From Lingula anatina (Eukaryota > Animalia > Brachiopoda), in contig CM120648.1 of assembly GCA_051362555.1 (NCBI GenBank), forward strand, positions 18,906,587 to 18,970,586: a stretch of DNA of 64,000 bases, given 5' to 3'. Shown piece by piece: positions 25,884 to 64,000 of this stretch. Position 1 is the stretch's first letter; each line of letters begins with the position of its first letter. A program made the translations under genes and the position numbers. The notes below the pieces were generated by a model. It made no database searches. It saw only the letters and a list, made by a program, of their open reading frames with translations, and was not told the origin of the DNA.

Positions 25884-26817
25884 ATGGAAGCCATGTTAGG
25901 GCAGTCTAGACGAGGTGTAAATCCAAGATCAGGACAGGTGACAGTACAGACACAACCTCCATTAGCTGAACAGGAAACAAATACAACATCAGCTACACAT
26001 CCTAATGTTTTCTTAGAGAAAGCAGAATGTGTGCGTTCCTTCAGTGCTAAACTGGAAGATGATAGAGAAATAACTGGCATAACTGGGTTAGCCATAGATA
26101 AGGAACACATGTTTGTTGTGGATGATGAAAACAACAGAACAAAAGTATTCACACATGAAGGACAATTTAAGTTTGACATTAAAGTAAACAAACCATATGA
26201 TGTGGCTGTGTCACAGACTGGTCACCTGTATATAACATCACTGGGTGACAGATGTGTCCAAGTGTACTCCACCAGAGGTCAGCAGGTGACAACCATGGGT
26301 CAGGGTATACTGGAGGAACCACAGGGTATTACACTGAACAGACAAGGTCATGTGATGGTTTGTGACAGTAGAAAGAAGTCCATCTTCACATTTCATGCAG
26401 ACAGTGGACAGCTCCTGAACACTATTCCACTCAGTATGTGTGAATTACCAGAGTACATCACAGTGAACACTGTGAATGATAACATTGTGATATCAGACAT
26501 GTGGAGACACTGTGTACATGTGCTGTCACCTACTGGTGATCATCTGTACAAGTATGACTGCAGCAGAGAAGGCAGTGAACTGAGTTTACCATATGGAGTG
26601 TGCACAGACAGCTATGGTCACATCTTCATTGCTGACAGTTGGAACCACAGGATAGTGGCACTGAGTCCACAGGGACAGTTTATCAGATACATTGTCACTA
26701 AGGATGATGGGTTGAAGTATCCCAGGGCAGTAGTCATCAACCCTGCTACTGGTCAACTGGTGGTGGGAGACACAGGGGGCAATGTTAAGACATTCACGTA
26801 CATTGAACTGAAACAAG
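25884..26817 (+). CDS. Exon 1 (putative): TRIM2/3-like NHL-repeat beta-propeller lacking RING/B-box
   Basis: About six NHL repeats (PYDVAVSQTGHLYIT, PQGITLNRQGHVMVCD, PYGVCTDSYGHIFIADSWNHRI). Ends in a consensus phase-1 donor CAAG|GTGAGT; if unspliced, the ORF stops at 26825 (313 aa). Confidence 0.9.
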
Positions 26818-27812
26818 GTGAGTAACATGTATTAACTGTGGATAGATATGATTATTATGTAAATATTTGAAAGTTAATTAGTCTTACAATGTTTTTATCC
26901 ATGAATATGTTTGCCTTTATTTCAATAAAAAAACTTTTAAGCATATTTTAATTCAGTAAGCACACAGCTGTGCTTTAGTAAAAATGTATGTAGAGTGGAG
27001 ACATTTTCTATTGTTAATACTTTACTGTTACTGACAAATTTCCATGAACCCATTAGTGATTAGGATTTTGAATAAGGATAAAGAACTCTTTTTAATGGAA
27101 TTTATAGTATGCTTTATTTGTATTTTTATTAAGTCACAAGAAAAACATCTTACATTGTTTAATCCCTGAACTTCTTGTCCATTTGTCAGTGAAGAACAAC
27201 TCAAGTCTCACAACAGAACAGTCCAGTTCTTCATATTCTTCATCTTGTAGCTGTTCATGAAAGCTTAGATATACCTAAATTCTCAAATGTACTTTGTCAA
27301 GTTTCTTGATGTCTTACCACTTCTAGATTCAAAGACATTTCATCACCAGTTTGTTGTTAACACACACAAATAAATTAAATGTTGAAGTACTTTGGATGAT
27401 ACCTTATTTTCCTGACTTTGTGGATTGCAAATAAAACTAGCAGACGACCATTTTTCATGAAATGGAACTACTTTTCACAGGAAGTAGTGTATTCATACAC
27501 AACAGTGACCTTGGGTTTGGAATACAAAAAAATAGTACATGTATTCATACTGTCACAGCATGCAAATTATAATGAAATATACAAAACTAAAAACATTTTT
27601 ATGTAACACAAAAAGTTAAATGCATTTTATTTATTTATATATATTATATATATATATATATATTATTATTATTATTATTATTATTATACTGGATAAAAAT
27701 GTTGATGAAATGGTTTTGACCACCTTTTTGGAACTTTTAAACTGCTTGCTGATGGACCCACATATTTATGTCATACACACTAAACATAGATGAGAAAGAA
27801 TATATCACGATG

Positions 27813-27880
<68 letters not shown>

Positions 27881-28179
27881 ATGCCTAATATGTATGCACT
27901 ACAGGTTCAATTCCAAATGTTATTCTTAAAAACCATATACTAGTAAATAAAAACGATTTCTTAGAATGCTTGAAAGTGAAATTTTCTGAGTATGATTTAT
28001 TTCAAACAGAACAACTTTATGGCTGTTGACACTTCTGGATTGTCTGATTATATAGCCAAAATAATCCATAAAGCATTCTGCTATAGGAATAAATAACAAA
28101 TCATAAATAAACATCAATGCTGTCATATCATACACAATACAAGAAAAGCATATGTCTACATGCAAATGTACAGTGTGTA

Positions 28180-28378
28180 TATGTTGCCAGAGTGTAGCCA
28201 CTGGCGGCTAGCTTCCAGCAACCCTACCGCTTACCTCCAGCAACATGCACTGTATATAGCCGAGACAAGCTGCTAGCGGCTAGCCTGTGGGGATACTTTC
28301 CGGCAGCATTTTTATGTTGCTGGAGTACTCCTGCTATACTCCGGGAGTACTTCAGCAACATTTTACGTTCTGTAAGGG
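28180..28378. mobile_element. CACTA/EnSpm-like terminus (orphan end)
   Basis: Ends TTCTGTAAGGG (reverse complement CCCTTACAGAA) with subterminal CCAGCAAC/GTTGCTGG repeats. No partner end found. Confidence 0.5.
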
Positions 28379-28746
28379 CATGCATTTCTAAGTTTTATAG
28401 TAAGCACACAGCTAGGTGTTAGTAAAAATGTATGTAGAGTGGAGAAACTTTTTACTGTTATTGACCAATTTCCACTGAACCCATCAGAATTATGAGTGAG
28501 AATGAGACACCTGCCCATCAGGCAAGTACAATATGTCTGTACATCTACTTGCCCTGCTCCAAATGTACTTGGTCTGCTTCAAATTAAAAAAAAAATGGGT
28601 GTTGATAAAATTTATTCTGAACAGTCTATAAGTCAGGCAGATTCAGTACAATGGCGTATGTATTTGTAGGTTGATAAGTTATTCACTAAAGAAAAAAACT
28701 TCATGTAATAATCATAATAGTGATACATAATACATGTATCATGATA

Positions 28747-34460: not shown

Positions 34461-37400
34461 TTATTGTACCACCAGCGTTAGCGCTGGCGGTACACATGGT
34501 TTCGGTCCCGTCCGGATCGTTCCGCCGGCTCCGCCGGCTCCGTTGGCTCCGCCGGCTCCGCCGGACGGCTACCGTTACCGCTTCTCCTCCTAGACGGTAA
34601 GGGCCCCCGTACCCATCTCATGGATTTAGGTCACCTATAATCTCAACTCGTTCCACGTAAAATTTGGGCTTTGTCGGTATTGGGGTCTGGGTGTGGCACT
34701 CATTGCAATTCACCCTTGTCTAAAAATGGCAAAATTAAATGCTAATTATCTACCCTACGGAAGGAGTTATGGGAAAAATTTCTATAGACGGTTTTCCAAA
34801 AGTCATATGTGTAGATTTCAAATATACCCTTGGATTTGACCTTTGACCTCTACTTCAAGGTCAAATGGGCCAAAATTTTCAAAAAAATGAAATTTTTTAC
34901 GAAAAAAAATTTTTTTGCCCTGTTATTCAGACACCACACAGACTTAACCAATAATATTATTGGAAAGTGTTACCCTTCAGGTCATCTTTCATCTCCATGA
35001 ATTTGGGGTCAATCGGTGCATTTTCACGGGAGTAGCGGCCATAAGATACCGAAACTTAAAACTGTCTCTAATTCGGGAACCGTTAATGCTAGAGACCCAT
35101 TCTTTTTTGCATTTTGTAGAGCATGTAAAGCCCAACACTAGAAGTGGTCTCGGTTTTTTTGTATTCCATACGGTTTTCGAGTTACGCTCTATCAAAAAGT
35201 AGATATTGGTGGTAAAAGCAAAATGTGCAGTACGGTAATGGATAATAAATTTTGAACTCTGGAAAAATAAAACATAAGGCTTGGCAAAGCAGACAACTTG
35301 TGTTCAAAAATGACATTATTTCATCAAATTTGAACTTCTGAAACTTCAAGGCACCTCCTATTTCAAGAATTTTGACCAAAATGACATTTTCTTTATTTTA
35401 ATTAATTTTTTCTGTACGAAATTTAAGGCACATTATGGTAATTCCAAAATTATAACATCTAGTCCCTTATATCTCCAAAACTGGCAGAGATAGGTCCATA
35501 GTTACTATTGAAGTTGAATAGGAAGTCATATACTGGCAATCTTACTATGACCTTGAAATTGACCTTTGACCTACTTTTCACCATGAACTGAACTTTGCAA
35601 ATTTTTCTTCCCTTTTATCTCCAAAACTGGCAGAGATAGGTCCATAGTTACTATTGAACTTGAAAAGGAAGTCATATACTGGCAATCTAAATGTGACCTT
35701 AAAATTGACCTTTGACCTACTTTACACCATGAACTGAATTTTGCAAATTTTGCTTCCCTTTTATCTCCAAAACTGGCAGAGATAGGTCCGTAGTTACTAT
35801 TGAACTTGAATAGGAAGTCATATACTGGCAATCTAAATGTGACCTTAAAATTGACCTTTGACCTACTTTTCACCATGAACTGAATTTTGCAAAATTTGCT
35901 TCCCTTTTATCTCCAAAACTGGCAGAGATAGGTCCATAGTTACTATTGAACTTGAATAGGAAGTCATATACTGGCAATCTAAATGTGACCTTAAAATTGA
36001 CCTTTGACCTACTTTTCACCATGAACTGAACTTTGCAAATTTTTCTTCCCTTTTATCTCCAAAACTGGCAGAGATAGGTCCATAGTTACTATTGAAGTTG
36101 AATAGGAAGTCATATACTGGCAATCTAAATGTGACCTTAAAATTGACCTTTGACCTACTTAACACCATGAACTGAATTTTGCAAATTTTGCTTTCCTTCT
36201 ATCTGCAAAACTGGCTGAGATAGGTCCGTAGTTACTATTGAGCTTGAATAGGAAGTCATATACTGACAATCTAAATGTGACCTTAAAATTGACCTTTGAC
36301 CTACTTTTCACCATAAACTGAACTTTGCAAATTTTGCTTCCCTTTTATCTCCAAAACTTGCAGAGATAGGTCCATAGTTACTATTGAACTTGAATAGAAA
36401 GTCATATACTGGCAATCTAAATGTGACCTTGAAATTGACCTTTGACCTACTTTTCACCATGAACTGAACTTTGCAAACTTTTCTTCCCTTTTATCTCCAA
36501 AACTGGCAGAGATAGGTCCATAGTTACTATTGAACTTGAAAAGGAAGTCATATACTGGCAATCTAAATGTGACCTTAAAATTGACCTTGACCTACTTTAC
36601 ACCATGAACTGAATTTTGCAAATTTTGCTTCCCTTTTATCTCCAAAACTGGATGAGATAGGTCCATAGTTACTATTGAAATTGAATAGGAAGTCATATAC
36701 TGGCAATCTAAATGTGACCTTAAAATTGACCTTTGACCTACTTTTCACCATAAACTGAACTTTGCAAAATTTGCTTCCCTTTTATCTCCAAAACTGGCAG
36801 AGATAGGTCCATAGTTACTATTGAAGTTGAATAGGAAGTCATATACTGGCATTATAAATGTGACATTAAAATTGACCTTTGTCCTACTTTTCACCATAAA
36901 CTGAACTTTGCAAATTTTGCTTCCCTTTTATCTCCAAAACTTGCAGAGATAGGTCCATAGTTACTATTGAACTTGAATAGAAAGTCATATACTGGCAATC
37001 TAAATGTGACCTTGAAATTGACCTTTGACCTACTTTTCACCATGAACTGAATTTTGCAAATTTTGCTTCCCTTTTATCTCCAAAACTGGCTGAGATAGGT
37101 CCATAGTAACTATTGAAGTTGAATAGGAAGTCCTATACTGGCAATCTAAGTGTGACCTTGAAAATGACCTTTGACCTACTTATTATCATGAACTGAACTC
37201 TGCTAATTTCTTTCTCTTTTAACTTCAAACTTGACAGAGATAGGTCCATAGTTACTCTTGAACTTGAATAGGAAGTCATATACTGGCAGTTTACTGTGAC
37301 CTTGAAATTGACCCTTGACCTACCTTACGAAGAACTTAAATTTGATTGTACCATATATATTTTTTGCAATAGTTTAAAAATTCTTGTTGATTGCATTTTT

Positions 37401-37529: not shown

Positions 37530-40500
37530 ATTATATAGTATGGTAAGAAATTACTTTGATAAACAACTGGTGTGAGACTGACAATGAGGTGATTTTTTTT
37601 TTTAATCTATGGATTTTTCATGTAAAAATTTCAGTTTTTATCTGCTTTGTATAAATTTCTTGTTTCTACATGTATGATTTTATCATTTTATTATATTTAT
37701 TTTTAACAGATTCCCAATTTGGGCATATCAGCTGACAATTAGGGAAGAGGTGTTCTGGTCAAGACCAGGGAAAATTATTTTCTATACGGTTTTGTTTGAT
37801 GGTGCTGTTGATGCAGGTGTGACTGAACAAGAGATGGTGTTTTGTACTGTAGAGTCTTGGATATTTTTTACCCTAGAAACCTTTCTCATAGCAGACAAGT
37901 TCTGGAACATTATTTTCTTCAAGTATTATACAGGATGGGCTTTGACCCAAAAGACTTCCATTGAGAGTGGCCTGCCTTTAAAGAGCACATAGGTGGCATG
38001 TTTATAGTGAATAAAAGTAAAGATATGTGTACTGATTTGTTTCAAGGCTAGGAGACCAGACAAAGATTAGAATACATACAATAATGCTATTTGAAATTGC
38101 CTTGTTCAGCCTGTCCACTTCTCAGGTGGAGAGAGGATACAGTGCTCTCAAAAGAACCGAATCTGACTGGAGGTCAAGTTTGGGGAATATTGTGCTTAAG
38201 TTAACAAAATTTTGACAGCAGTTTTATAGGGGCCAAGTTTTGATGATCATTTAGTCAAGGAATCTATCAACCACTGTGTGGCAGGGTGGCACTCTGGGAA
38301 AACAGCCCAATTTTGAACTTGAAAATTGATTTTGTTTTCTGACTATCATATCCAGGTAAATGACCTGGCCATTGAAGATTCTAAGGAAATAAAAAAATTG
38401 AAACATACTCGTATACTGAAGTTTTGTTTTTTTTCATTTTTAATGCACTTTGATATGTATTTAATTACAAATTATATTCAAGAATTTTCAGTTGGGGATG
38501 ATCTTGGTTGTATGTCAGTTTTGGCTAAAGTAATATTCATAACTTGCTGGGGCAGGTGCTTCTTCTGCCCTCAGAATAGACATCAAGTTGGCCAACGAGT
38601 TTATTGGAGCCTTGTTAACTGCTTTAATTTAAAAGGCAAAAAGTTTAAAAAAAACTTTCAAAAAGTTCAGTGCATATTCATGAGGCTGAATTAACATTTC
38701 CCAGGGACAGTGCTTTAAGGACATGAGTTTTAAATGTTTACTTAGTTTTGTTTATCACACAGATTTCAAAATTTTGCACTTTTAAAAAGAGAAATGTAAA
38801 TTTTAAATAGATTAGGGATATTTTTTTCAAATTGCAATTGTAAGGGTCTTATTTTAAATAGTTTAATATGTAAGAGACAAAAATAGTACTAGTACATAGA
38901 AATAAATATTGAGCAGTAAAATAAGAGAACAAGGCAGAAGTGCAGATCTTAATATAATGAATAAACCGGAGTTGAATGATTTTTTTTTATCAAAACCCTT
39001 TCAGGCTTTAAAAAGTACAACCTGGCCATAGACCAGTACTTCATTGTAAATATTTATCCAATTAAAAAAAATCTTGTTTTATTTATAACTAGATCTTATC
39101 ATCTAGCAATATCTTTCTATATCGGTCAAAATTCACACTGGATTTCTTGTGGAGTGGATCATAACTATACAATTTTTGATGTTTTAAGAATGAGTTTATA
39201 TAACTCTTGGAATATTTCTGATGTTAGATGCACAGCACTTGTTCGTATTTTAATTTTATTGTAACTTGTTTGCTCTGATATTCAGAATATTTAAGAAAAC
39301 TTGTAGTCTTGTTAAGTCGGGTCAGTGCTTCAGGTTGGTCACGTGACGCTATAAATTATGATGAAAATGGGGTTCCATTTTTGTCGTCGTTTTGGAGATG
39401 CACTAATTTCCCCACACAAAATGGGTAAAAATTGTAGGAGATATACCTTATGATATATCATTTGAAAGTTTATGATCTTATCTTTCTGCAGGATGTAATT
39501 GTTTGAAAATATTTTGCGTTTCCTGCGATACATAATCACAGTAACTTAATGCACTTGAAAAAATCGATTTTGCCGACTTTAACACCGACTTCACGGGAAT
39601 ATGAACACTTTGCCAACGAGGTGGGACCCAAACGCAACATGTGTTTCATATCAACACAAAGCACACTTGTTTACCTTTTAGAATATATATAAAACGCTGG
39701 TGATTTCAACATTGTAGCAATATTGTTTAAATTGAAACACCCTAGTGTTGCACGCTTCAAAATTGCGAGTGCTTGGCGTCGAGTTCACCTCGCGCTAAAA
39801 AAAATGGACAAAGCTGAATTTTCAATATATATATACTGCCAGAGACCCAGTTTAACCAGCTTTCATGATTTAGTTTTTAAAACTTTGTACAATTTAAACT
39901 TCTTATAGAGATCTTCAAATAGAAAATTTCGGACACCTGAAACGGGGCACCATTTGCAATCACCCGCGTGGATAAATCTTCCATTTTACCGTTCTGAATC
40001 TATTTTTTATGACAACTAACCTTAAGATTCCGAATCCCTAGATATCCCCGCTTCTTTTTATATATCTATCGTTTAATCACATCAACTGTTGACAAAACTA
40101 CACATGAAAATACGAAGAGCTCAAAAGTCGTCCATTTTCACTCGATTTTGCTGAAAGTAGTGCGAAAATGGCCGTCGCTTCAGACAGTGTGCACGTGCAG
40201 CTCGGAATCTGCGGACAGACTGCTGGTCCAACATAAGTTAAAAGCTTAAAAAATGATGTTGGTCCTACGTTGGCCCAACGTTGGCCCCACATCGGATCAA
40301 CGTCAACAAAATGACGTTGGCCCTACATTGGATCAACGACAAAAAAATGATGTTGGTCCTACGTTGGCCCAACGTTGGCCCTACATCGGATCAACGTCAA
40401 AAAAATGACGCTGGCCCGACATTGGCCCAATGACGGCAGACCAACGTCAACAGTGCCGACGTTGGCCCAACGTTGGCCCGATGGCGGCATGCCAATGCCG

Positions 40501-44790: not shown

Positions 44791-45021
44791 GTGAGTTTAA
44801 TGAACGGCTTCGCCGATTGTGTGAAAGTGGTAAGATTCCAGTATACCGACAGCGAGTAGCTATTGTTGGACCTTACGGTGTGGGGAAGACTTATCTCGCC
44901 AAGCGCCTCATCCATGAGGAATATATCAAAGAAGAAGATGCAAATACAACTGGCGTGAATATATACCGCCATAGGTGTGTTGTCCATAAAGCTGGCCGAT
45001 CCTGTTGGATCAGAGGAAAAG
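44791..45021 (+). CDS. Roc GTPase exon: P-loop and switch I
   Basis: GKIPVYRQRVAIVGPYGVGKTYLAKRL...NTTGVNI. Phase 1-1, CCAG acceptor, G|GTAAGC donor. An in-frame TGA at 44766-44768 and no ATG before the P-loop mean an upstream exon is required. Confidence 0.85.
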
Positions 45022-45840: not shown

Positions 45841-45891
45841 CTGCTTCCCCTGATGACAGTGAATCACCTGCCTCTCCTGACAAAGCAGCAG
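45841..45891 (+). CDS. Micro-exon (51 nt) of the Roc insertion
   Basis: Long pyrimidine tract plus TACAG; AASPDDSESPASPDKAA; CAG|GTAAGT donor; phase 1-1. Confidence 0.7.
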
Positions 45892-47350: not shown

Positions 47351-47389
<39 letters not shown>

Positions 47390-47396
47390 TTTTGTC

Positions 47397-48395: not shown

Positions 48396-48428
48396 CCGCT
48401 CCACCTGCCTCTCCTGACAGAGCAGCAG
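48396..48428 (+). CDS. Duplicated micro-exon (33 nt) of the Roc insertion
   Basis: Paralog of 45841-45891 with an 18-nt in-frame deletion; AAPPASPDRAA; splice sites intact; phase 1-1. Confidence 0.65.
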
Positions 48429-49260: not shown

Positions 49261-49506
49261 TGGCAGAAAGGAACCATCTAGATGATATTGACAAGGAGCT
49301 ATTGGAAAAAATTGAGAAAATTGCCCGAGGGGAAGATGTGGAGCCAGAGAAACAGGTCACAATTTGGGATTTTGCAGGACAGGATGTCTACTACACCACG
49401 CACCAAACATTCCTCTCAGAGCGGATCATCTACTTGTTGGTATTCCGACTTGACCAGGACCTCGATGATAAAATCCGTGTATACAGGGGAGAGAAGACGC
49501 TGAAAG
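49261..49506 (+). CDS. Roc exon: G3/switch II
   Basis: VTIWDFAGQDVYYTTHQTFLSERIIYLLVFRL is the canonical Roc motif. TTGCAG acceptor; phase 1-1. Confidence 0.92.
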
Positions 49507-49772
49507 GTATTGTTGAGCTTTATATCTTTACATGTATAAGCTACTCAGGGCCCTCATGTAAATAATGGCCTGTCAACTGTGTGTAATTTCTTTATTAAAA
49601 GGTCCACATTTTTAAATCTCTCTATTGCTCTTAATATATATATATATATATAACATTGAGATTTTAGTAGCGTTAATTTTAAATGGTTCCGATGAGTGTT
49701 TTGGATTTTAATATTCTAGTGATTTTAAGGATTTTAGTTATATTTACCATTGTAAGCCGCCCAATAAGAAAC

Positions 49773-49803
<31 letters not shown>

Positions 49804-49894
49804 TATTGGCGCTATTTTTTAGCAATGCTGAGGAGAAAACACTGATTAATATTCATCTTTGCATTAACATCAAGGCTTTGTATGTATTTTTCAG

Positions 49895-50019
49895 AGTTTA
49901 TTATGTTTTGGTTAAACTCAATCCATATGCACACTATTGGAAAATTGAGGGAAGAAGACAAAAATGCCATGCCATACGTCTTGATTATTGGAACTCATAA
50001 GGACATGTTATGCCCACAG
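49895..50019 (+). CDS. Roc exon: G4
   Basis: FWLNSIH...PYVLIIGTHKD; phase 1-0. Confidence 0.9.
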
Positions 50020-50063
50020 GTGAAAACGCTTTTCTTATCACAATTATTCAATTACTACCATAC

Positions 50064-51785: not shown

Positions 51786-52115
51786 CTATGTATAATTTGT
51801 ATCCCTTCAACCATATCACGATTCCTGACGAGTGACTTAATTATTTAGAAACTTTTCACTATGTGACTATTTGTGGATGGCATGATTTAATGTTGGGGGA
51901 AAAGGGTGTCCCTTGCCCACTGACTCCATCCTAATTTTATAGGTTCATTGCAGCACACCCATTTTTCAACTTGAACGAAGTGGACTATATCATATACACA
52001 TATATACATGTACATACACACACCCTGGTAGATGTTTTCTTTCGCTCTGACACTTAAGCATTATTATATAGTAGTGAAAAACTACAAAAGAATCTTAACA
52101 TCTTTTCATTCATAG

Positions 52116-53286
52116 GGCGAGGTTGAAAAGATTTTTGATAAACTCAAGAAGTGTCTCGATGACAAGCAGGTACTCAAGGACCACGTCTATCGATATTTTG
52201 CCATAAGCAACTTGGCCGAAGACGATGAGGAGTTTGCTGAAATAAAAAGAGCGATCGAAGATTTGTGCGGTTATAGCAGCGACAGTGAGGCTACCGTTCA
52301 ACATCTTCCAGTGAGTTGGATTAAATTGGAAATGAATTTGGCAAAGAAGAGTGAAGAAACACCCATCATAAGTATTGAAAAATTGATGGAAATGGCGCAA
52401 AGGGTAGGACTCCCTGATGGAGAATTACAAGAAAAATTCATTCCTTACCATCACCGTCAAGGCGACATCCTACACTTTAAAATTGATGGACTGGAAAGTG
52501 TCGTCATAATAGATCCACTTTGGTTAGCAGTTGTGTTTTCTGCCATCATGACCCCAGCCAGCATTCACTCTGGATGCAGTCGCGGCCATGTCCTGAAAGA
52601 TGAGCTTGAAAGAGGAGTCCTAAAAGAGGAGGTATTTGATGAGTATCTAAAAGAATTCAAGATGGCCGAAAAAAAGACTGAAATCATTCGACTTATGCTG
52701 CATTTCGACTTGATGTTAGAAATATCCCAATCAGTTGAAAACCCTCTGCCTGGACATGGAAAAAGAAGATTCCTCGTACCCAGTATGCTGGTATCAAATA
52801 ACAGTGCGAATGAGACAAATCCGCAGAAATATTTGCTTATCGCATTCCCTCATATTCTGTTTCCTACTGGGTTATTTCATCGTCTGACCATCCGTCTTCT
52901 AAGGAAGTATAAAGCTCAGCAATATAAAAATAACATCCCAGTTGTCGGGTTTGACAGCGCCTCCTTCCGCCTGGCTGATAAACAGTCGGTGCTGCATCTC
53001 GCCATTGAAAATAAGGCCATGAAGTTGTTTATAACTAACGCCACTGGACTCCCTCCAAGGACTCACGTGTATTCAGAAGCAAGAAAAACAGTTGAAAACG
53101 AGTTGACAGTCCTTCGGGATACATACTGCCCCAGGATGCATTTTGGCTACAGCATCAGGTTAACAAATGACGGACCCAATATTCCAATAAATGCACATGA
53201 CGTCCAAACAGCCGATTCCATATGTGCGTATGTAGAGAACTCTGAAGTGTCGGTAGATTTAAGGCCATATCGCGTTTGGTTTTCCG
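52116..53286 (+). CDS. Roc G5 plus COR domain exon
   Basis: YFAISN (G5), LPVSWIKLE, YHHRQGDILHF, VVIIDPLWL, FLVPSML and PTGLFHRL are COR-A/COR-B motifs; phase 0-1. Confidence 0.92.
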
Positions 53287-53955
53287 GTAAGCAGTTTGAA
53301 ATATCACGTAATGTTGTTGTGAATAGACATTAGGCCCTATGCTATTTTAACATAGAACATGCATTCCGTGTTAATTGGTTCACAGATCTTAACATTTTAA
53401 AAGATCCCTGATTACACAGCATGTAATATCTGAAACCAGATACCATTAGAAAATTTAGGTTTGATTAGTTTTAATTTTCAAAGTAATTTATCTGGAAAAA
53501 AGTATTAAGGATATTTCTGTTTTGTACATATATTTTTGAAAATATTGATTTTTTACACAAACACTAATGACATACAATGTTAGTTATTTCTTATGAATAC
53601 TCAATTGTATATGCAATAGACTAAAAAATGCACAATTAGAAATTAATGGGAAAATTTATATTAATCTACCCTTCTTAAATGAACTAGGTACTTGTTTGTA
53701 ACATTTTTATTAGAAACAAAAGGCAAGATATCGTATTCAGATTTTACTCAAACGTTGTGAATTAGCAACCTGTGATAACAAGTCATTAGAAACATGTCAG
53801 TGAGAGATAAACCCAAAATTAACAATCATTTCGGAATGACACTTGGATTTTGCAAGGAAAAGTACGGCGTATGATAGGACATAAAGTATTTTGATGGGGC
53901 CCTAGAGGCCAAGTACCAATATATAATATATATTAGGCCAATCTTACCATTTTAG

Positions 53956-54005
53956 CAGCCCCAGAGAATCAAGACCGTCGTGCAGCCAAGTGTCCTGAAA
54001 ACGAG
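53956..54005 (+). CDS. COR-caspase linker exon with GC donor
   Basis: TTTTAGCAG (NAGNAG) acceptor; AAPENQDRRAAKCPENE; GAG|GCAAGT donor. It converts phase 1 to the phase 0 required by the next exon. Confidence 0.7.
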
Positions 54006-54327
54006 GCAAGTTATGAGCTTTTAAATACGTTTGTGTCTTAGTACTGCGCAGCAAACACATAACGTTATTATAACGTTACCATATCATATGTCCAAAAACA
54101 TTTTGGTAACATTATAGTAACGTTCTGTGTTTGCTGACCATTATCCTCACTTGCACAAGTTTTAGTAAGACCATGAAATTAAATGTACTCGTATATACAC
54201 AATCGTAAGAAAAATTGGATACACTTAGGCATAAATGCGCACTTTTCACTCTGTTACACTTGCTATACGACCTCCGATATTTCTAATGATAAATTTCACA
54301 TAAAGACAGTGTATGTGTGCGTTTCAG

Positions 54328-54498
54328 TACAAGAACGATTCCGAACCGAGAGGTCGTGCACTCATTATCAACAACAAGACATTTTCCGTGGACTGGCTTC
54401 CAGAACGTGATGGTACCGAGGTAGATGTTGTTGCCTTGAGGAAACTATTCCATTACCTCCATTATGAGACAGACGTTATCAGTAACCTGACCGCAAAT
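54328..54498 (+). CDS. Caspase p20 exon 1
   Basis: YKNDSEPRGRALIINNKTF...ERDGTEVDVVALRKLF..L.Y...SNLTA; phase 0-0. Confidence 0.93.
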
Positions 54499-54819
54499 GT
54501 GAGTTCATTAATAAGATCATGGTGTGTTTGTAATAAAACGAACATCGTAAAAGCCAAATGGCTTTTAGGTTTCAAAGACTAACACACTTTTTGGTGATAT
54601 CTAAATATATTTATCAGTGACACAAAGATGATACAATTGATACTTGAACCTTTTGGTTCAAAACAGGTGTTGTCAAACAAACTTTTCGGTCACATTTTAT
54701 TATGTTTATCTATTTCACTGCAATGTATTTTTCTACCAAAATGAAGCTTTTCACTCGTTTCTGTTCATTGCATGTATTTGTATTTATATGAGAGACATAT
54801 GGTACACTGTATAGTTATA

Positions 54820-55429
54820 CAACATTGGTCAAAAAGGTTGTCCCACCCCTATTTCCATGTACTTCTATTTACAGGTGATCACCTTACAGCTATAAATTGT
54901 TAGAAATAGATCACTGAATTGGAGTGTGCAATGCAAAGGAGAACCAACCCCATAAAAACCTGGGCCAAATCCCCCAAATCTTGTTTAAGAAGAATCGGAC
55001 AATATTCCACAAAGCAGAATTGTAACCCGTGTTGAAGGCTTGTCGCGCCGTCTACAGGAGATAATTGCAGTACGTGGTAGACGCACACGCTGTTAGGCAC
55101 ATGACCTTTAACGAGCATACACTAATGCTAATTGTGTGTGAATTTGGTGACATTTGATGCCGTCTTTTCAATTTTATAGACATTTCTTTACATCTGTAGA
55201 AGTCACAGAGAAACAGTCGATTTGAGGGGGTTCCTCTTATAAATTTTACTAAATGGTATAAAATATGTATATTTTCATCACTATTTTGTATTTTTAAAAC
55301 CATTAATCACGTTAGACACGGTATCCGTAATAAAAAGCACTATTTCTAACAATTTATAGCTGTAAGGTGATCATCTGTAAATAAAAGTACATGGAAATAG
55401 GGGTGGGACAACCTTTTTGACCAATGTTG
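54820..55429 (+). mobile_element. Tc1-like deletion derivative in a caspase intron
   Basis: About 90-bp TIRs starting CAACATTGGTCAAAAAGG, TA TSD. Internal VEGLSRRLQEIIAVRGRRTRC* resembles the Tc1 transposase C-terminus. Confidence 0.85.
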
Positions 55430-55667
55430 TATACAGACAGACATGGCGCACAATCTACAAATATACCACCATATGTCCGTCCTCGGTGGCTACTGCCTTT
55501 CACATTCTCTGTTAGCGTCAAGTATGAATTGATGCTGCCATTTTGCTTTACGCTGTCGTTGATAACCCAATTCCGTATGTACCACGTCTCTGCAGTCATT
55601 GCATGCTATTTCGTTTGAAGTACACTATGTTTTTATGTCACTACTTCTTTTATTTTAATATGTAAAG

Positions 55668-55887
55668 GAAATGAAGGAAGAAATAGAACAAGAAAGTCAA
55701 AGAGACGATCACAAGATCTACGATTCGTTCATCTTGTTTCTACTGAGCCATGGTACCGAGGGTGCTGTTTATGGAACGGATGGCTATCCTTTACCCTTCA
55801 AATATATCAAAGCCATTTTGAATAACAGGAAATGTCTTGGCCTGTCGGGCAAACCGAAAATGATATTTATTCAGGCTTGCCAGGGAA
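55668..55887 (+). CDS. Caspase p20 exon 2 with catalytic dyad
   Basis: FILFLLSHG...VYGTDG...LSGKPKMIFIQACQG; phase 0-1; GTAAGT donor. Confidence 0.96.
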
Positions 55888-56149
55888 GTAAGTTATGGAA
55901 TGTATTACACAAGCTTGAATACCTGTGATGAAAATAACATGCAAAATTATTAAACAAATGTATTGAGATATTAAACTGTATTAACAGTTTGTCTCCTTTA
56001 AATTATATTCAGCCACACGAAACGAATGACGCTTAGTATTATGTAATTGTTTAATTAGTTAATACTGATATCAATTCTAACTTATATGTAAACATGTAAT
56101 CCACATAAGAGTGTATGGGGTATTTCATTTTTTTTCCATATTCACCCAG

Positions 56150-56320
56150 AGAGAAGGGACAGTGGGACACTCCTGGACGGACAAACAGTTCAACAACCAC
56201 AGCAAGCACCACCTGCAGCAAACCTTGGCGATGAGGTACCCGATGCGCCACACGAGATTCCAAAGCCATCCAATGATCCGACGATGTCCGATTTTCTCGA
56301 AGTCCATGTGACTTCACCAG
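56150..56320 (+). CDS. Caspase intersubunit linker and start of p10
   Basis: KRRDSGTLLDG...DEVPDAPHE...PTMSDFLEVHVTSP; phase 1-1. Confidence 0.85.
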
Positions 56321-57401
56321 GTACTTTAACCGTGTTTCTTTGTATGCCATTTTACTTAGGCCTTACAAATGTGTTTTTCATCAGAAAAAAAAATCAAAAT
56401 GATAAGGTGCACGTGGTGATGCTGGGATTATGGCATTTTGCCTCAGGTAGAAGATGGTGTGCATTTTGTGGTCTTTCGACATATTGTGGAGAACTGTATT
56501 GTACGTGTATACTTTAAAATGCGCACTACATTACTGCACCAGTAAATACTGAAAATGGTGCATGTATTTTTATACAGTATCAAATAAAATATATGTGCCA
56601 AATTTAATTAAAATTTACGTACATTTTTGCCATAATGCTTTTAAAAATGCGTTCAAGATCACTACGAAAAACGAAAGTGTGTCGAGACGTTACCTAATTG
56701 TATTTGGGAAGCTGTCAGACGATTTCTTTCGAAAAAAGACTTTGTAGCTTATGCAAATGTTGAGAAAAAAACATGCCGATTATGGAAAATTCAATTATCA
56801 AAATTTAAACTACGTAATTTGACAGATTTTAATTTAATTTAATTTAAAAATCGCTATCGTGTATTTTTGACATTGAATTCTCAGTGTGCACAAAGTGTAG
56901 GCATCGAAGGCATTCATGAATGTCGACACGTTTGATTCTTTGAATCAGACGTGTGGCAGGCATATCAGCAAAACAAAATGCATCGCCAAGGACCCGAATG
57001 CCATGGCAAAATGTTTTAAGTTTACTTTGTTATTTTGATACAAATAAGCTTCCGGTTGACATAGATTTGACTGGTCTCCAACTTTTCATGCTGCACTGTG
57101 CCTGACCGAAAAAAAAAAAACCCTTAAAATGAGTAGTGATTCAGTGTTCCAGTGATGCCTGCGATGGCTAGAAACGTGACCCGTATTATTGGCCTTTTGG
57201 AGATCATTTCAGGTCGGTTCACTGTAACACTATCGGCAAATATACTTTACTAATAGTTCCTCGATCTATGCGATTTATGAAATTTGCTTTTCCGCACTCT
57301 CAGTGAGACTAAGTACTGTTATATTAACAAAATAAAAATAAACAGTACCGTTGCATCTACGAGTAAATAATACATTAAGGCTTCAGTATTTTCTGTTTCA
57401 G

Positions 57402-57511
57402 ATTACGTATCTTGGCGACACACGGGAAAGGGAACATGGTTTGTTCAATCCATTGTCGATACATTTTATCGTGAAGCACACAAATATGACGTTTTACAAA
57501 TGTTGGTGAAT
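57402..57511 (+). CDS. Caspase p10 exon
   Basis: DYVSWRHTGKGTWFVQSIVDTF...DVLQMLVN; phase 1-0; not in the ORF track. Confidence 0.93.
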
Positions 57512-57747
57512 GTAAGTACTGAAATAACATGAACTATATTATTTTACATTGAAAGTGTGTTAAATTCATTAGAACACCAATCAAATATAAAACATAGCTA
57601 CCAGAAGAAGTGACATGTCGTAAGAGGTGACTTATGTAAATACAGTCCAACATGCACAGACTTTTTAAGAACCAGCGAAATGCTTTTCTGTATATTTTGA
57701 CAGTTTAATCAGAACTGTTCACTTCATGTAATATTTTATTTCACCAG

Positions 57748-57850
57748 GTCAATCACGCGATCTCTCAAAAGCAAACAATAGAGGGCAACAAACAGGCACC
57801 AGAGATAGTTACCAGCTTACGAAAGAAAGTTTTCTTCAACATAACTCCAG
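57748..57850 (+). CDS. Caspase p10 final exon, open-ended
   Basis: VNHAISQK...KQAPEIVTSLRKKVFFNITP, then CAG|GTAAGC phase-1 donor instead of a stop codon. Confidence 0.9.
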
Positions 57851-58019
57851 GTAAGCAAAAAGAGTCGCATCTTCCCGAGGTGTATTCGGCCGAATAATAA
57901 AGACTCGAGATCAAAAGTAAGCAAAAACAACGAACCTGGAACGTGTTAAGGTACAAACAATGCTGCCAGTCCTGCTGAAGATCTCATCCTTTTATCAAAT
58001 GTCTCAAATCTGCCACCCA

Positions 58020-60070
58020 GTTGCAGACCCTACCTACAAAATTGTTTCCCAACTTCAATAAATTATTCCCAACTAAAGCTGGAACTTCAAGGTTATGATC
58101 TTCATAAGGTTATTTTTCTCATCAATGTTATTTCTATGTGTTTCTACCTAAATTGCACCACAACTCCTAGCATTCACGCACCTCACATTCATTTATCAGT
58201 ACTTACTCCTCCTGAAGTGATTTGGGACTACATTGAATCAGGTTATCCTTTGGGCGGATTACTGGCACAATTTAGTCTCCTTCTTACAGATTTCAAATAT
58301 TCAATGTTACATGTTGTCCCTAAATCTGATCTTCACAAAACTCGTGTAATTTACGATCTTTTTTTTTATCCCAACCTGGTCTCGGTTGATTCTAACATTC
58401 CAAGAGAGTTCTCTGTGGCACAGTACGACTTCATTGATGCTGTTATCACGCAGGTCCAACATTTTGTTCGTGGTGCTCTTTTAGGTATATCTTATATTCA
58501 AGATGTTTTCCACATTTTACCGATTATCAACTGCGTCCATCCCTTAAAGGCCCAGTGGGTCACCTGTGACCTACACATTTGACACGTCCCCACCCACACC
58601 ACACAAAATGAATCCACTTCATTTTGCCATTTCCTATTCCCTTTGACGTAGTTTATCTTTGTTGACCAATTAGAAGCTAGATCATTATCCTTCACTTCAC
58701 TCAAATATGTCTGCTTCCATAAGAAGGAGTTAATGCTATTGTCTAGAGGGTTTTTATGTGTCTGTATTGTCATCTCAAGGTAAATAATAATTTCAATATT
58801 CTGGCTTTTCATTCTAAATACAATAGTCTTAAACCACACAGAAATGTTTTATACAGTTGTTAGCTAAGCTTCCAGGTTTAATTTTATTTTTTATGTTGTT
58901 ATTGTAATAAAAAGAGGTTTGTGATATCTTGAAACTTAGTCCAGTGTGTCACCGGTGGAACATAACCAAAAACTAGGTCAGTTTTGCCCAAAACATTTTT
59001 TTTCAACATTTATTGATAAATATGCTTATTACAACCCTATTACCTAGGTATTAAACTTTTCATGCAAGAAAAACATGTCTTGGGCCTTTAAGGGTTTTTC
59101 CTGGATAGATCTGTTTTATTATGAGAAATGTTTGCCAATAGGTGCAAGTTGTTCATGCCAGATTTTTTAATCTATGAGTAAAGCTATGCAATGGATTATG
59201 TTGGAGAGATTTCATTATTCGGCCATGTCCCGTATACTAGATGATATCTGTTTCATTGGACCTCAAAATTCCAAGAAGTGTCAGGTTGATTTTTTTTTGT
59301 GTTATGCACATGGATAAACGTTTCCATTAACGCAGTAAAAACCTTTACTCTGACCACTTGTTTAATGTAAACAACCTTTACTCTGACCACTTTTCTTTAT
59401 TTTATCTCATCGAAATAGATTCAATACAAATGAAACCTTGGATAGGCTTTTAGGGTTTAATCTGAAATAAAATTTCAGGCATCGGTCAAACGTGTCTAAT
59501 TTGGTTCAGTTTTGTTGTGGGATATGGTTGATTGGGTGAGTAATGACCCACCCACTTATTGTCCATGTGGTTCAAGTATGGTGATTTTGATGATCAAGGT
59601 AACTGCTTACTCCCTTGTTTCATAAAGTTATCTGCTATTCGAGGTTCTCTGTTCGAACCAGTAATCTCATTGTGCAACCTCAAATTACTCCTAATGTGCC
59701 CCCTAGTCATGCGATTCCCAGATTATAACTTACTTTGATGTGTTTAGGATCTTATTATTTTTTTACTATAAAAAATGATAATTTTCAGTCATATGCACTT
59801 TACCTCATTTGCCTTTGAGCAAAAACAGAGCTGCGTTGTGCTAATGATCATTTGGCTACATAAAACAGCAATTTAGATAATTGTGTTTATGTAGGGAATG
59901 TCTACATCAGTGAGATTTAAGTCATCCAGCTCTTTAGCTGCTTGATATTTACCCACATTGTTACGTAGTGCAGTATAAGCAGCTACACTGGAAGATTACT
60001 TGCTTCATTATTTCATTTTTATTTGGACACATTCCACCTTCCCGCATCACCCGCCTTAGTCCTTTTGTTT
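58020..60070 (+). mobile_element. Decayed DIRS/Ngaro-type retrotransposon (RT remnant) in the caspase-ZU5 intron
   Basis: VVPKSD..KTRVIYDL..PNLVSVDSNIPREFSVAQYDFIDAVI...RGALLGISYIQDVFHILPI (58136-58582) and ILDDICFIGPQNSKKC (about 59230-59280) resemble DIRS/Ngaro RT. Boundaries approximate. Confidence 0.7.
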
Positions 60071-61043
60071 TTCTCTATTTTTTTTCTTTTTTCACTAACC
60101 AGAGTCTCTATTTCTGCGCCAATAACTATAACTTTGTACATATAACCCTCACTGGGGTAGCGCTAACACTCGCCAGTTTAGCCAAATGCTAAAACTTGCT
60201 GAAATTGGCTAAAGAAAAAGGGCTTGATTTGACTTGTTGTAGTCAAATTATAACCATTTTGATAACAATTTGACAAAAAAGTGGTGATTTGCCTAAGAGA
60301 AAAAAAAATAGCTAGCGCTACCCTAGCCTCACCTGCCTTTGTCGCCACCGATGCTGATGCCATGTACTTTAACTCTGAGTGGAAAACCATATACACTTCT
60401 GTCTTTAAAGCTGCAGAACCAACGAAAAAAAAGGCCCAGCTGGCTTGATCAAATTATTCTTTCAAAACTGATGTTTTTTTTTTTTTTTTTACATGTTTTA
60501 AGAGATAATAACTCTTCGTTTTGGCAAAATAAATGAATTTTCCTGGAGTAAACAACACTTTTCCCATACTTACCAATGGTTAATGAATCCATTTTTACAT
60601 TCAAAGTAAGTCCCTGTTTTTTTTTCTAAAAAGTTTGTTTTTTTTGTTAAAATCTCTTAAAAGATTATAACAGAGTACAGCTATCAATGGAAGTCACGTG
60701 ATCTGAAGACAAGCTCAGATATCAGAATAATAGCTTTAACTGCTGTTTTTGTGGTAAAACAGAATAACACATTTCAAGGAAAACTGATAAGTGTACCTAA
60801 AGCACAGATCAAATGACTAAAATGCAGGTTGAGCTTCAAACTTTTGGGTTTGATAGACCTATCATAAATGATGTGCATGGGGACTTTGGATTTAAGTGGA
60901 CCTGGGGATTTGGGCTGTGCCCGGGAGGAGGGATAAATAAATATTTCTACATTTTAATTTCTGCTATCTTCTCCTATACAATTAGAGGGATTGCATTTCA
61001 ATGTTGATAGTCAACCAAACATCAGGGATGCATGTTTTTTTTT

Positions 61044-61076
<33 letters not shown>

Positions 61077-61137
61077 ATCAGGAGAAATATAGTTCTATCA
61101 ATTGATTTGACAATTCTTTTTCAATACTTTGCTATAG

Positions 61138-61823
61138 GAGACAGAGATGACGGTATGTCTCAAGAAGAAAGAATTTTAAAATTACCTGCACCACCCCAGA
61201 CCAGGCACTCTGCCTCACAAGGCAGGGAGGAGATCAGAACAGATGATCTCAAAGATACATTCCTGAGGAAATTCTCCATCACTCCAGAAGGTGGACATGT
61301 TCACCTGAAGGAAGTTGGAGTATTCCTATTAGTGCCTCCAGGAGCTCTGGCTGAAACTACACAAATGTTCATTGGTATTAGTTGGAGAGAAGAAGACATG
61401 CCACCGCTGCCACCGTGTCAGACTAGAGCAAGTCCAGTTGTTGTCTGCGGACCACATGGCCTGACATTCAGAAAACCAGTGTACCTGTCATTTTATCACT
61501 GCATATCAGGCACACGTCAAAGAAAGATGGGAAAGATCTGTCCTGAAAATGTAACTCAGAATTCAAGAATGGACAATCCATTTTACGTATGGCAGTCAGA
61601 AACTCACTTAAATGCCCCTTGTAAGTGGAAAGTATTGAGCAGTGATTCTGCTGTTTTGACAAACAACAAATGTGTCTTAATTGTGAACCAGTTCTGCAAA
61701 CACAGTTTGTCATGTGACAGTAAGCGTCTTTCTGCCTTGGTGTTTGGGTCATTTCAGCCTGGATATGCCCCGTTGCTGCAACTGATGGTGTGCTGTGTCA
61801 ATGACACCCCATATGAAGTTGAG
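61138..61823 (+). CDS. ZU5 domain exon plus start of UPA-like region
   Basis: ITPEGGHVHLKEVGVFLLVPPGAL...SPVVVCGPHGLTFRKPVYLSFYHC matches the ZU5 pattern; phase 1-0; GAG|GTGAGG donor. Confidence 0.9.
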
Positions 61824-62158
61824 GTGAGGCTTATTCTTCAAGCAGGTCTCTTTCTTTGTAAATGTTTGGACAATTCCTCACATACTGACATAATTTCAAT
61901 GTAATAGCTGATTGTTAAAACTTTGTAAATTGTAATTAGTTACTTCGTTAAGTATTCTTAATTTATGCCAATTCTTTTAAATTGAAATATGCATTCTTTT
62001 TCAATTGAGCATTTTCGGGACAGCCCAACATGTCATATGTTTTCATATCTTTTGTGCTTATTTGTGGAGATTGGTTTTCGCTCCTTATCTTTTGATACCC
62101 CTGAAATGCTTGTATGTTGCTGCTGAATGGTAAATATTTTTTGTTGTAAATGTTGTAG

Positions 62159-62335
62159 AATGTGACAACTAAAACTAAGGAATCCCATGAAATGAAGATG
62201 TTAGCTTTGGAAAAGAAGTTTGAAATCTTGACGTGTAATCACAGTATAAGTGAAGGAAACGAGTCCTATGATGTCATCCTTTGGTTAGACGGGTTCGGGA
62301 CAAAGTGGAACATGCATGAAGATTGCCCTAAAAAG
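62159..62335 (+). CDS. UPA-like exon
   Basis: Open phase 0-0 exon NVTTKTKESHEMKMLALEKKFEIL...WNMHEDCPKK with AG/GT boundaries. Confidence 0.65.
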
Positions 62336-62525
62336 GTTTGATTTTTTTTTTTTTTTCAATATTGTGTAACAAAGATATGTATACTATAATAAGAAGGCTA
62401 TTTTAGGCATAAAGAGCATGTACTGTGATGATCATTGCTGATTGGTGTGAAAATATCAGTTTCTTAGATAATGATAGAGAGAGTGATCGATAGAATAAGT
62501 TTAAAAATACCGTTTTGCATTTTAG

Positions 62526-62714
62526 GTTATTAAGTATGTGAAATTGTTGAAAAACTACCCAGAATATATCACATATGCCCTGAGCCCTAAAATGGTAGAC
62601 AGAATTGATGTGTTTGTCTGCAAGATACACATCAAGCAGGAAATAGCCGAGGCTCAGGACATGAAAATTAAAGACCTGACATCCACTGAGTTTAACATCC
62701 ACTGGAAGTTACCG
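62526..62714 (+). CDS. UPA-like exon
   Basis: VIKYVKLLKNYPEYITYAL...FVCKIHIKQ...HWKLP; TTTTAG acceptor and CCG|GTAAGT donor; phase 0-0, no stop codon. Confidence 0.7.
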
Positions 62715-63450
62715 GTAAGTCAGTAGGCAGAGACATGCTGAAACTATTGGTCCGTTCGGTCATGACACCATGCACCATATGGTATGGAATGCTTGACATT
62801 GACCTGTTATAATGCATCTTGTATGATTTATATACCATAGTTTGTTCAAAGACTCATCTTCCTAGATACATGTATGTTTTAAATATCACCAGTTTTTGAC
62901 TGATTTCTTTTTCCTTTTTCAACTGACCTTTCATAATACTACAGGGTTGCCAGTTAGTTCGGAAAATAAAATTCCCAGACTCTTTACTGTTCGAGATTTT
63001 TTTTTTTATTTGCTGCCTAATACCACCTAATTTTCCTGGCTCCACCTCACCAACAACCATCCAATTCATCCATAATTGTTTTTTTTTTTCATCAAACCAA
63101 CTTTTATTATGTTACGCGTGCGCCATTACCTCCATCTCTTTTCATACACATGCCCCGAGTCCAAGCTTATGACCTATTTTAATGGTACATATTTTAAATC
63201 CTGATGTTGCCAAATAGACCTTTGAGTGGAGACCTGGCACATTGAGATTCAAGTCCTGCTCTCAAAACAATTGACTGGCCTTGGTATTATGATAATAGGT
63301 CTGCATATCAGGTTTTTCATGAATTTATGGCAACATTGTGAAATTTTTTTCTCATCTGGTGTTTTCATTGTGTGGATATAAACACTCATGGACCTGAAGC
63401 TTTATGCTAGTTACATATTCCAAATCTCCATGTTATAATTACCTACTGAG

Positions 63451-63821
63451 CAGTGTTTGCCACTTATACCCCCTTTACACTGGACGGCGTCCTTTCTGCG
63501 ACCATGAAATTTGGCATCGCTGTGGTCTTAATAAGGAGGCAGGAGTATTGGTTTTGTATCAGAATGACTGCTCAATGATCGACCAGTTGTCAGCACGTAA
63601 AGTGTTATAATTTTTTAACTCTCAAATGGGGCTGAACTGCTGGATGCAGATAGGACGCCGTCCATTGTAAAGGGGGCTTTAGGAAAATAAGTTGGTGGAC
63701 CGAAAGCTCAGCCATCTTGAAAATTAGCTGGATGGAATGCCTGCCGGGTGGGAAAACTCCTCTGCTCATTCTAAAAGTTGTCTGCCCCGGGCAGACGGTC
63801 CAGCCTTAATTTCTAACACTG
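63451..63821. mobile_element. hAT MITE (8-bp TSD) containing a Harbinger-like MITE
   Basis: CAGTGTT...AACACTG with TSD CTACTGAG. The inner element 63467-63678 has TIR CCCCCTTTACACTGGACGGCGTCCT and TTA flanks. Confidence 0.8.
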
Positions 63822-63932
63822 CTACTGAGCATAATTAAACTTTGGTTTTGCTGTTGTTGCTTAAAAAAATCTATTGATTTCTCCTTTTTGTTTGCACATT
63901 TGACAGCAACCTTTTCATTTCTCTTCTTTAAG

Positions 63933-64000
63933 AGAAGGCAAGGAAGTCTTTCTGGCCCTTGCAGAAATGCAGAGGAGGATCACTTCAGCAATATCCCTGT
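63933..64000 (+). CDS. Probable next exon, truncated by the window end
   Basis: Pyrimidine tract plus TAAG, then open RRQGSLSGPCRNAEEDHFSNIP. An alternative acceptor at 63906 is also open in another frame. Confidence 0.35.

Follow-up and report, generated by a model that had tools for sequence, protein, structure and literature searches.

A Roc-COR GTPase gene of Lingula anatina with NHL, caspase and ZU5-UPA modules as a candidate single-chain immune receptor

Receptors in which a Roc-COR GTPase stands between a sensor and an effector have precedent, as has the joining of Roc to a caspase. Bacterial LRR-Roc-COR proteins carry swappable effectors, a caspase among them, and act against invaders (PMC8195603), brown-algal ROCO proteins diversify while animals hold up to forty Roco domain combinations (PMC11378527), Roco-TIR proteins occur in Aplysia (PMC9334734), and an Owenia caspase with a ROC pro-domain sits in caspase-Y (PMC11463336). 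Apaf-1 has been lost in brachiopods, annelids, and molluscs, and caspase-2 in Lingula (PMC11463336). The gene described here lies on the + strand of a 64,000-nucleotide stretch of the brachiopod Lingula anatina (assembly GCA_051362555.1, contig CM120648.1, positions 18,906,587 to 18,970,586), hereafter the window, and its exons encode an NHL propeller, a Roc-COR GTPase, a caspase and a ZU5-UPA region in one open frame. With a probability of roughly 0.58, it encodes a single-chain, intracellular, NLR-like immune receptor that is built on a Roco GTPase and gates its own caspase.

Exon chain, modules and described relatives

Seventeen + strand exons join into 4824 nt, or 1608 codons with 0 stops, in an intron-rich window of 36% GC. 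All acceptors are AG (16/16) and the donors are GT in 16/17, exon 9 having a GC donor; the first-pass annotation, which had proposed 17 exons with matching phases and 1608 open codons, is borne out, with canonical sites and the one GC exception. Pfam was run exon by exon with curated cut-offs defining a family match, and 7 of the 15 pieces scanned carried no family. Exon 1 (25884..26817) encodes a six-bladed NHL propeller at aa 43-307 (NHL, E 1.8e-21) and ends in a phase-1 donor. The Roc domain (E 4.4e-6 in exon 2 and 1.7e-8 in exon 6) extends over exon 2 (44791..45021; the P-loop G1 and G2), exons 6-7 (49261-49506, 49895-50019; G3 and G4) and exon 8 (52116..53286), which carries G5 and the entire COR in its A and B parts and also ends in a phase-1 donor. 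Exons 3-5 (45471-45626, 45841-45891, 48396-48428) form a low-complexity insert between G2 and G3, in which exon 5 duplicates exon 4 in a shortened form (an 82% DNA duplicate, 45764-46009/48319-48545), has reduced RNA depth and could be skipped in frame. The motifs that we take to be G1-G5 lie at residues 338-345 (GPYGVGKT), 363-367 (G2 region), 504, 583, and 621. COR-A matches exon 8 (E 1.8e-21) and Pfam COR-B has no match on the window; the exon 8 model (pLDDT 86) matches the entire COR of CtRoco 3dpt (E 3.5e-13, 332 columns), and the fold also matches LRRK1/2.

The caspase is encoded by exons 9-14 (53956-54005, 54328-54498, 55668-55887, 56150-56320, 57402-57511, 57748-57850), a phase 1-1 cassette with Peptidase_C14 in exons 10, 11, and 13 (E 2.1e-9, 2.9e-18, and 8e-6) and caspase-2 as the best PDB match of exon 11. 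It contains the catalytic dyad His1084 and Cys1127 within His-Gly and QACxG motifs, the S1 residues Arg1026, Gln1125, and Arg1192, the p20-p10 order, and an Asp-containing linker, where Asp1139 and Asp1161 are candidate self-cleavage sites by position. Exon 15 (61138..61823) encodes ZU5 (E 2e-19) and the beginning of UPA, and exons 16-17 (62159-62335, 62526-62714) encode the remainder of UPA and end in a GT donor. The UPA assignment comes from the alignment of exon 15 to UNC5B 3g5b, which runs from ZU5 into UPA through residue 225 (E 2e-8), and Pfam UPA has no match on the window. These Pfam matches and motif positions confirm the earlier statement that Roc G1-G5, COR, the caspase dyad with its S1 arginines, and ZU5 are all intact. 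Because exon 17 ends at a GT donor, the gene likely extends beyond the window, where a linker rich in Gln and then a CARD-like domain are likely to come next, as these follow UPA in the paralogs P0047 and P0219; in the P0047 region after UPA, CARD_2 matches below its cut-off (E 0.00098) and CARD leads in the Atlas at 0.8.

By these features of its sequence, the protein is a Roco protein and a caspase, but belongs neither to the NLRs nor to the TRIM proteins or the Roco kinases. No protein kinase family was found on 14 exon pieces or 81 other open reading frames (ORFs) of the window, and the TRIM paralogs gave no tblastn match for RING, B-box or coiled coil 5' of position 25872. An NLR/STAND core was rejected, with only 21-24-residue P-loop matches below the cut-off (E 0.013 and 0.03) against a Roc match above it.

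The chain resembles each of the described systems in part. Like the bacterial Roc (AP-GTPase)-COR proteins, it belongs to a set of several paralogs per genome with a variable N-terminal sensor and a swappable C-terminal effector that may be a caspase, whereas the bacterial proteins have an LRR sensor and a single effector instead of an NHL, spliced modules, and two tandem effector modules (PMC8195603). Similarly, the brown-algal LRR-ROCO family is expanded, shuffles exons and diversifies one binding face; there it is single LRR exons that are shuffled, mostly without effectors and with no caspase mentioned in the text, whereas Lingula swaps whole domains at both ends (PMC11378527). An exon-per-repeat LRR array before Roc is not present in the window, its place being taken by the single-exon NHL. 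The ROC-caspase of Owenia fusiformis has Roc N-terminal to a caspase-Y-type caspase, and its caspase (P0052) groups with that of the window, but the Owenia protein is without NHL and ZU5-UPA, and the paper mentions it briefly as peculiar to that species, naming no COR, sensor or family (PMC11463336).

In NLRP1/CARD8 and in PIDD1 of the PIDDosome, ZU5-UPA follows a sensor region, as it does here, with Phe plus a nucleophile at the cleavage position, an initiator caspase as output and, likely in the window gene too, a subsequent CARD; unlike the window protein, which has a GTPase and a caspase within the chain, their NTPase, if there is one, is a NACHT, and the caspase that they recruit is a separate protein. 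LRRK2, DAPK1, MFHAS1, and CtRoco share the Roc-COR tandem with G1-G5, whereas the window has no kinase or LRR and places a protease in the effector position after COR. The TRIM2/TRIM3-like TRIM-NHL proteins share the NHL fold and sequence, but in the window the NHL is N-terminal instead of C-terminal and is without RING, B-box, and coiled coil. Full-text searches, with most subscription journals and supplements outside their reach, found no paper that describes the five-module architecture or a family of Roco proteins in Lingula. The first-pass annotation had known of no described protein with this architecture. Neither the five-module chain nor a variable NHL sensor nor a shuffled family of this kind in animals was found in print by these searches, whereas the Roc-caspase fusion has been published (PMC11463336; PMC8195603).

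A shuffled Lingula family with a variable propeller face

Searches by single exons, which covered proteins of up to 2000 aa, returned mainly Lingula anatina models (5/5 matches for exon 8, the best 22 of 39 for exon 1, and 3/3 for exon 15). P0008 shares 90.5% identity with the window protein over aa 1-592 and is colinear with it there. Other members combine the same modules differently: P0002 is a Roc-COR-caspase, P0001 and P0003 are Roc-COR-HEPN and P0005 is HEPN-Roc-COR; in P0007 the same NHL (87%) is attached to a Roc-COR that is just 26-27% like that of the window; P0045 and P0046 have the P0007-type Roc-COR followed by the same ZU5-UPA (85% and 79%) and, together with P0219, are Roc-COR-ZU5-UPA proteins without a caspase; and in P0009 the NHL leads directly into a tail, Gln-rich and CARD-like, which in P0047 (68% alike) and P0219 follows UPA. 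Similarity to these relatives starts and stops at the phase-1 introns of the window gene, after exons 1, 8, and 14. The members are automatic gene models from a fragmented assembly, some of them possibly cut short or mis-joined, and the model of P0221 is fused to an unrelated EXS gene. A further output is suggested by P0004 (Lingula, XP_013405835.1), where a RHIM-like motif at aa 666-681 follows Roc-COR (E 0.007, below cut-off) and may mediate amyloid signalling.

In a quick Roc-COR tree, from which P0049 and P0163 were dropped after being missed by the motif pattern, the sister of the window protein is the HEPN-ended P0001 (support 99). Approximately unbiased (AU) tests on 13 rows rejected a grouping of the window protein with P0002, with all caspase-ended Rocos, or with P0007 and P0045 (p 0.0005, 1e-4, and 2e-7), these p values being optimistic as the groups were named after the first tree had been seen. 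A single origin of all Roc-COR-caspase proteins on this tree is thereby rejected (AU p 1e-4). The effector ends found on family cores (HEPN, RHIM-like, caspase, and ZU5-UPA) are all immune or death effectors. From these comparisons, the window gene appears to be one combination in an expanding family built by shuffling phase-1-bounded modules, and the lone architecture implied by the first-pass annotation has to be given up.

The sensor candidate is the NHL. The exon 1 model (pLDDT 86) is closest to the TRIM3 NHL 7qrw (E 5e-21), and Lingula TRIM-NHL paralogs, 42-69% identical to exon 1, are likely the source of the module. Between the window NHL and three copies 84-87% identical to it, 73/316 columns are variable. 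Positions with at least three residues number 28/66 in the D-A/B-C loops, 0/53 in the opposite loops and 3/146 elsewhere (Fisher p 2e-16), with loop classes taken from the model strands after the alignment had already been viewed; thus 28/31 of the most variable positions lie on one face. In comparison with P0008, 41 positions differ in the NHL (268/309 identical) and only 4 in the Roc part (277/281 identical; p 1e-8). The charge of the variable face swings between copies from 13 basic/7 acidic to 6 basic/10 acidic residues, and the aromatic content also shifts. The same face bias is present in 15 Lingula TRIM-NHL proteins (entropy 1.77 vs. 0.79 bits). The variable face is presumably the RNA-binding face of NHL domains. 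NHL domains bind ligands, including RNA, on one face (PMC5908797). The idea of a sensor gains support because the variation between copies is confined to one face. The TRIM-NHL proteins P0010-P0027 of Lingula are a large expansion with one-face variability and may themselves be a variable receptor family.

A quick tree of 72 caspase rows places the window caspase in a 10-row Lingula/Owenia clade (SH-aLRT, a likelihood-ratio branch test, 95) whose other members include the Owenia Roc-caspase and two Lingula fusions, a PARP-caspase and a caspase-RIG-I protein. It is likely of the caspase-Y type by its match to the caspase-Y of PMC11463336, in a tree that contained no named caspase-Y reference set; the N-terminal CARD pro-domain of caspase-Y is absent from the window chain, where NHL-Roc-COR occupies its place. 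Identity is 47% to the caspase of P0051 and 40% to that of P0002. The Roc fusions of amphioxus, anemone, and crinoid use other caspases in this tree, which suggests that Roc was joined to a caspase more than once. Beside the Roc-COR-HEPN model P0001 lies P0212 (Lingula, XP_023933245.1), a caspase fragment 79% identical to the window caspase in which the catalytic Cys is replaced by Asp, possibly a decoy. The caspase of P0121 (Lingula, XP_013415815.1), which is N-terminal to a RIG-I/MDA5-like helicase, belongs to the clade of the window caspase.

Beyond Lingula, P0002, which has neither NHL nor ZU5, was scored against 1.84 billion representatives and gave 9305 matches at E 0.001. The best 150 of these included 146 new proteins, comprising Roc(-COR) with caspase (10), Roc-COR only (34), and caspase only (102). 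Among the ten fusions in this best 150 of 9305, the caspase follows COR in seven (Lingula 2, Owenia with an N-terminal Bcl-2, Branchiostoma, Exaiptasia, and 2 others) and precedes Roc in three (the mussel Potamilus, the crinoid Antedon, and Branchiostoma). P0052 (Owenia, CAH1786849.1) is a Bcl-2-Roc-COR-caspase (Bcl-2 E 5e-23) of a Roc-COR lineage different from that of the window, and its Roc-COR sister is P0051 (Lingula, XP_013407220.1; support 97), whose N-terminus resembles a worn Bcl-2 fold by eye and has no Pfam Bcl-2 match. The pair possibly represents an ancient fusion of Bcl-2, GTPase, and caspase in animals without Apaf-1. In P0195 (Exaiptasia, XP_020902336.1), HEPN, an AAA/STAND-like ATPase, Roc-COR, and a caspase are combined in one model.

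A broader proposal is held tentatively, at slightly less than even odds, namely that lingulids possess a receptor class on Roc-COR with TRIM-derived hypervariable NHL sensors, in which caspase-Y, HEPN, RHIM-like, and ZU5-UPA-CARD outputs are swapped at phase-1 introns; the window gene would be its fully armed member, a one-chain apoptosome or inflammasome in a lineage without Apaf-1 and caspase-2, and other invertebrates would have reached Roc-COR-caspase independently.

Transcripts, mechanism and competing explanations

RNA reads from 4 of the 9 listed runs (X1, X4, X5, and X7) were compared at 90% likeness with 44301-64000 (exons 2-17). Splice joints are those of a table crowded by repeats, with 15 joints listed and 115 more beyond the listing. 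Among the joints listed, at least 6 of the 15 predicted introns in this interval were seen at their predicted sites (read numbers in X4, X5, and X1, respectively): joints 2-3 (36, 11, 2), 3-4 (34, 9, 4), 6-7 (41, 23, 0), 7-8 (39, 12, 0), 9-10 across the GC-AG intron 54006-54327 (35, 20, 0), and 13-14 (30, 36, 1). Sense-strand RNA runs across exons 2-17 in X4 and X5, at a depth per exon base of 10-80 on exons 2-15 in these runs, repeat-dominated bins excluded. Complete lack of expression, an outcome that the first-pass annotation had said would refute its gene, is therefore not what was observed, and the family is expressed and spliced as drawn. Of the junction reads to which it had looked for proof of one chain, those of the six introns are clean, while those of the three inter-module joints (1-2, 8-9, and 14-15) are missing from the joints listed, and support for these comes from homologous gene models and depth instead of direct reads. 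The depth in X4 and X5 is 0-0.3 over 58098-60068, which speaks against a 3' untranslated region (UTR) after the caspase, and no UTR-like extension was seen ahead of exon 2 or past exon 14. On the homologous models and the read depth, it is probable that the window locus makes all modules on one mRNA.

Initiator caspases fire on dimerization. In the proposed mechanism, the variable NHL face would bind a foreign or damage ligand, and GTP binding, by analogy with CtRoco, would keep COR dimers apart so that the resting receptor is mostly monomeric with its caspase off. Ligand would cluster several chains through the NHL and stabilize the COR dimer, upon which two caspase domains, situated approximately 25 residues from COR, could pair, cut the linker at Asp1139/Asp1161 and become active. 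As a weaker step, self-cleavage of ZU5 at Phe1443-Cys1444 may release a UPA-CARD fragment and so strengthen the signal, as happens in CARD8 and NLRP1. Bacterial CtRoco is a dimer when empty or GDP-bound and a monomer with GTP (PMC5714945). The sign of the GTPase switch, which is taken from this analogy, is the weakest step of the mechanism. A model in which GTP means off is favored because CtRoco is monomeric with GTP and initiator caspases fire on dimerization; because of the same property of CtRoco, a P-loop mutant may turn the caspase on and not off. The sensor/switch/protease logic of an NLR, as put forward in the first-pass annotation, is supported by the architecture and the one-face variability of the NHL, with the switch possibly working in either direction.

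If this is true, a caspase with its own GTPase switch and sensor would answer how initiator caspases are activated without Apaf-1, a GTPase-based receptor class would stand beside the ATPase-based NLRs in animal innate immunity, and the NHL propeller would be a variable recognition scaffold comparable to LRRs. In addition, protease activity could report the monomer-dimer state of Roc-COR, which is still debated for LRRK2. If GTP does hold the receptor in the monomeric state, a P-loop mutant is predicted to have a constitutively active caspase, opposite to what is seen in NLRs.

Several points weigh against the receptor reading. The role is putative, and so are the ligand, the infection response, and the protease activity. 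The propeller loops were classed after the fact, as stated above, and surface loops also vary neutrally, such that face variation alone may be compatible with drift. The His needed by CARD8 has no certain equivalent in the window ZU5. All five modules were found together in none of the 221 proteins fetched, and NHL or ZU5 in 0/146 of the new matches among the best 150 of 9305, the query having carried neither. The six joints are absent from run X7 and nearly absent from X1, the depth on the bin of exons 16-17 is 13.5 and 5.6 compared with 19-55 on exons 10-15, joints 8-9 and 14-15 are not among the joints listed, and the reads did not cover joint 1-2, across an intron of 18 kb. The sole record of joint 11-12 (14 reads, X4) encodes Leu-Asp where the window has Arg-Asp; Leu-Asp is also found in the paralog P0212, so the caspase RNA signal is partly that of a paralog or another allele, and this record was rejected as evidence for the window locus.

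Much of this bears on the explanation that the chain is in reality shorter, with a stand-alone NHL or a ZU5-UPA on another transcript, Roc-COR-caspase as the main product and in-frame skipping as a possible source of isoforms. The 18-kb first intron, the stops that read-through would meet 2 codons beyond the donor of exon 1 and 14 codons beyond that of exon 14, the in-frame skips that are possible for exons 9-14, 2-8, or 2-14, and the unlisted joints 1-2, 8-9, and 14-15 are all in keeping with it, and cross-mapped reads of paralogs 78-93% alike may account for the depth on ZU5. It is nevertheless unlikely, given that P0008 is colinear with the same NHL-Roc border, that P0007 joins the same NHL to another Roc, and that the read depth does not spread, as it would over a UTR, into the DNA preceding exon 2 or following exon 14. 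Nor did intron 1 or the upstream DNA yield another gene or family exon: a comparison with 211 proteins gave two spurious matches, and none of 81 ORFs passed a Pfam cut-off. Further NHL exons, or a second gene, within intron 1 or the first 25 kb were rejected, the matches to Brix, nucleoside-transporter, and DUF4026 being below cut-off and chance-like. An alternative assignment of roles makes ZU5-UPA-CARD the working arm, in which the chain cuts itself at Phe1443-Cys1444, the N-terminal part serves as bait or leash, UPA-CARD is set free once this part is removed or is cut by the fused caspase, and the GTPase tunes and does not gate the caspase. Phe1443-Cys1444 stands at the CARD8/PIDD self-cleavage position, and Phe followed by Cys or Ser is kept in 8/8 ZU5 copies (Cys 7, Ser 1), both by manual alignment. 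In CARD8-type self-cleavage, Ser, Thr, or Cys can serve as nucleophile, and Gln before Phe is tolerated and did not block cleavage (PMC3210808); P0045, P0046, and P0219 carry ZU5-UPA without a caspase. Such a working arm is decidedly unlikely, however, with a weakly supported CARD beyond the window, a cleavage site aligned by hand, an uncertain activating His, and many Roc-COR-caspase proteins without ZU5.

There is also a slim chance that the gene is a short-lived exon-shuffling product of a birth-and-death family, transcribed and in frame with its modules uncoupled and no selected function as a whole. No full-length match was found, nearby members look decayed or dead (the Cys-to-Asp change in P0212 and truncated models), and phase-1 borders keep any combination in frame; but the catalytic and nucleotide-binding residues are all intact over 1608 codons, and the Roc-COR-caspase order has arisen by independent joining in four or more animal species. 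The chance is very remote that the protein is a developmental or stress regulator whose NHL binds host RNA as in Brat/LIN41 and whose caspase has a non-immune role. The RNA binding of this fold on one face (PMC5908797) and the difference in expression between RNA runs would suit it, but a reader of RNA motifs should conserve its binding face, which here is the most variable and changes its charge between copies.

The 5' end and repeats of the window

A promoter-like cluster at 25631..25702 (+ strand), approximately 200 bp 5' of the ATG, contains two motifs GGAAGT (25631, 25695) and GCCATTTT (25677), which we take to be of the ETS and YY1 types, respectively, each ETS 8-mer having 2 occurrences in the window. 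The cluster suggests, as far as motifs can, that the gene starts at or close to exon 1, and three homologs begin at the same Met. An acceptor-like AG site at 25864-25883, 14 nt 5' of the ATG and in phase 1 with the frame, may nonetheless serve a further coding exon 5' of exon 1.

Among the repeats, 146-bp tandem arrays lie inside a larger repeat at 35463-37323 (12.8 copies) and 50730-51589 (5.9 copies), the latter with very deep, mostly one-strand RNA of up to about 1570, which probably comes from copies elsewhere. A 2.3-kb element is present in two copies (500-2762 and 37922-40222) that are 88% alike and in opposite orientation. In intron 14, a 210-codon open frame (57950-58579) has no Pfam match and almost no RNA; by eye, it looks like a decayed retrotransposon reverse transcriptase.

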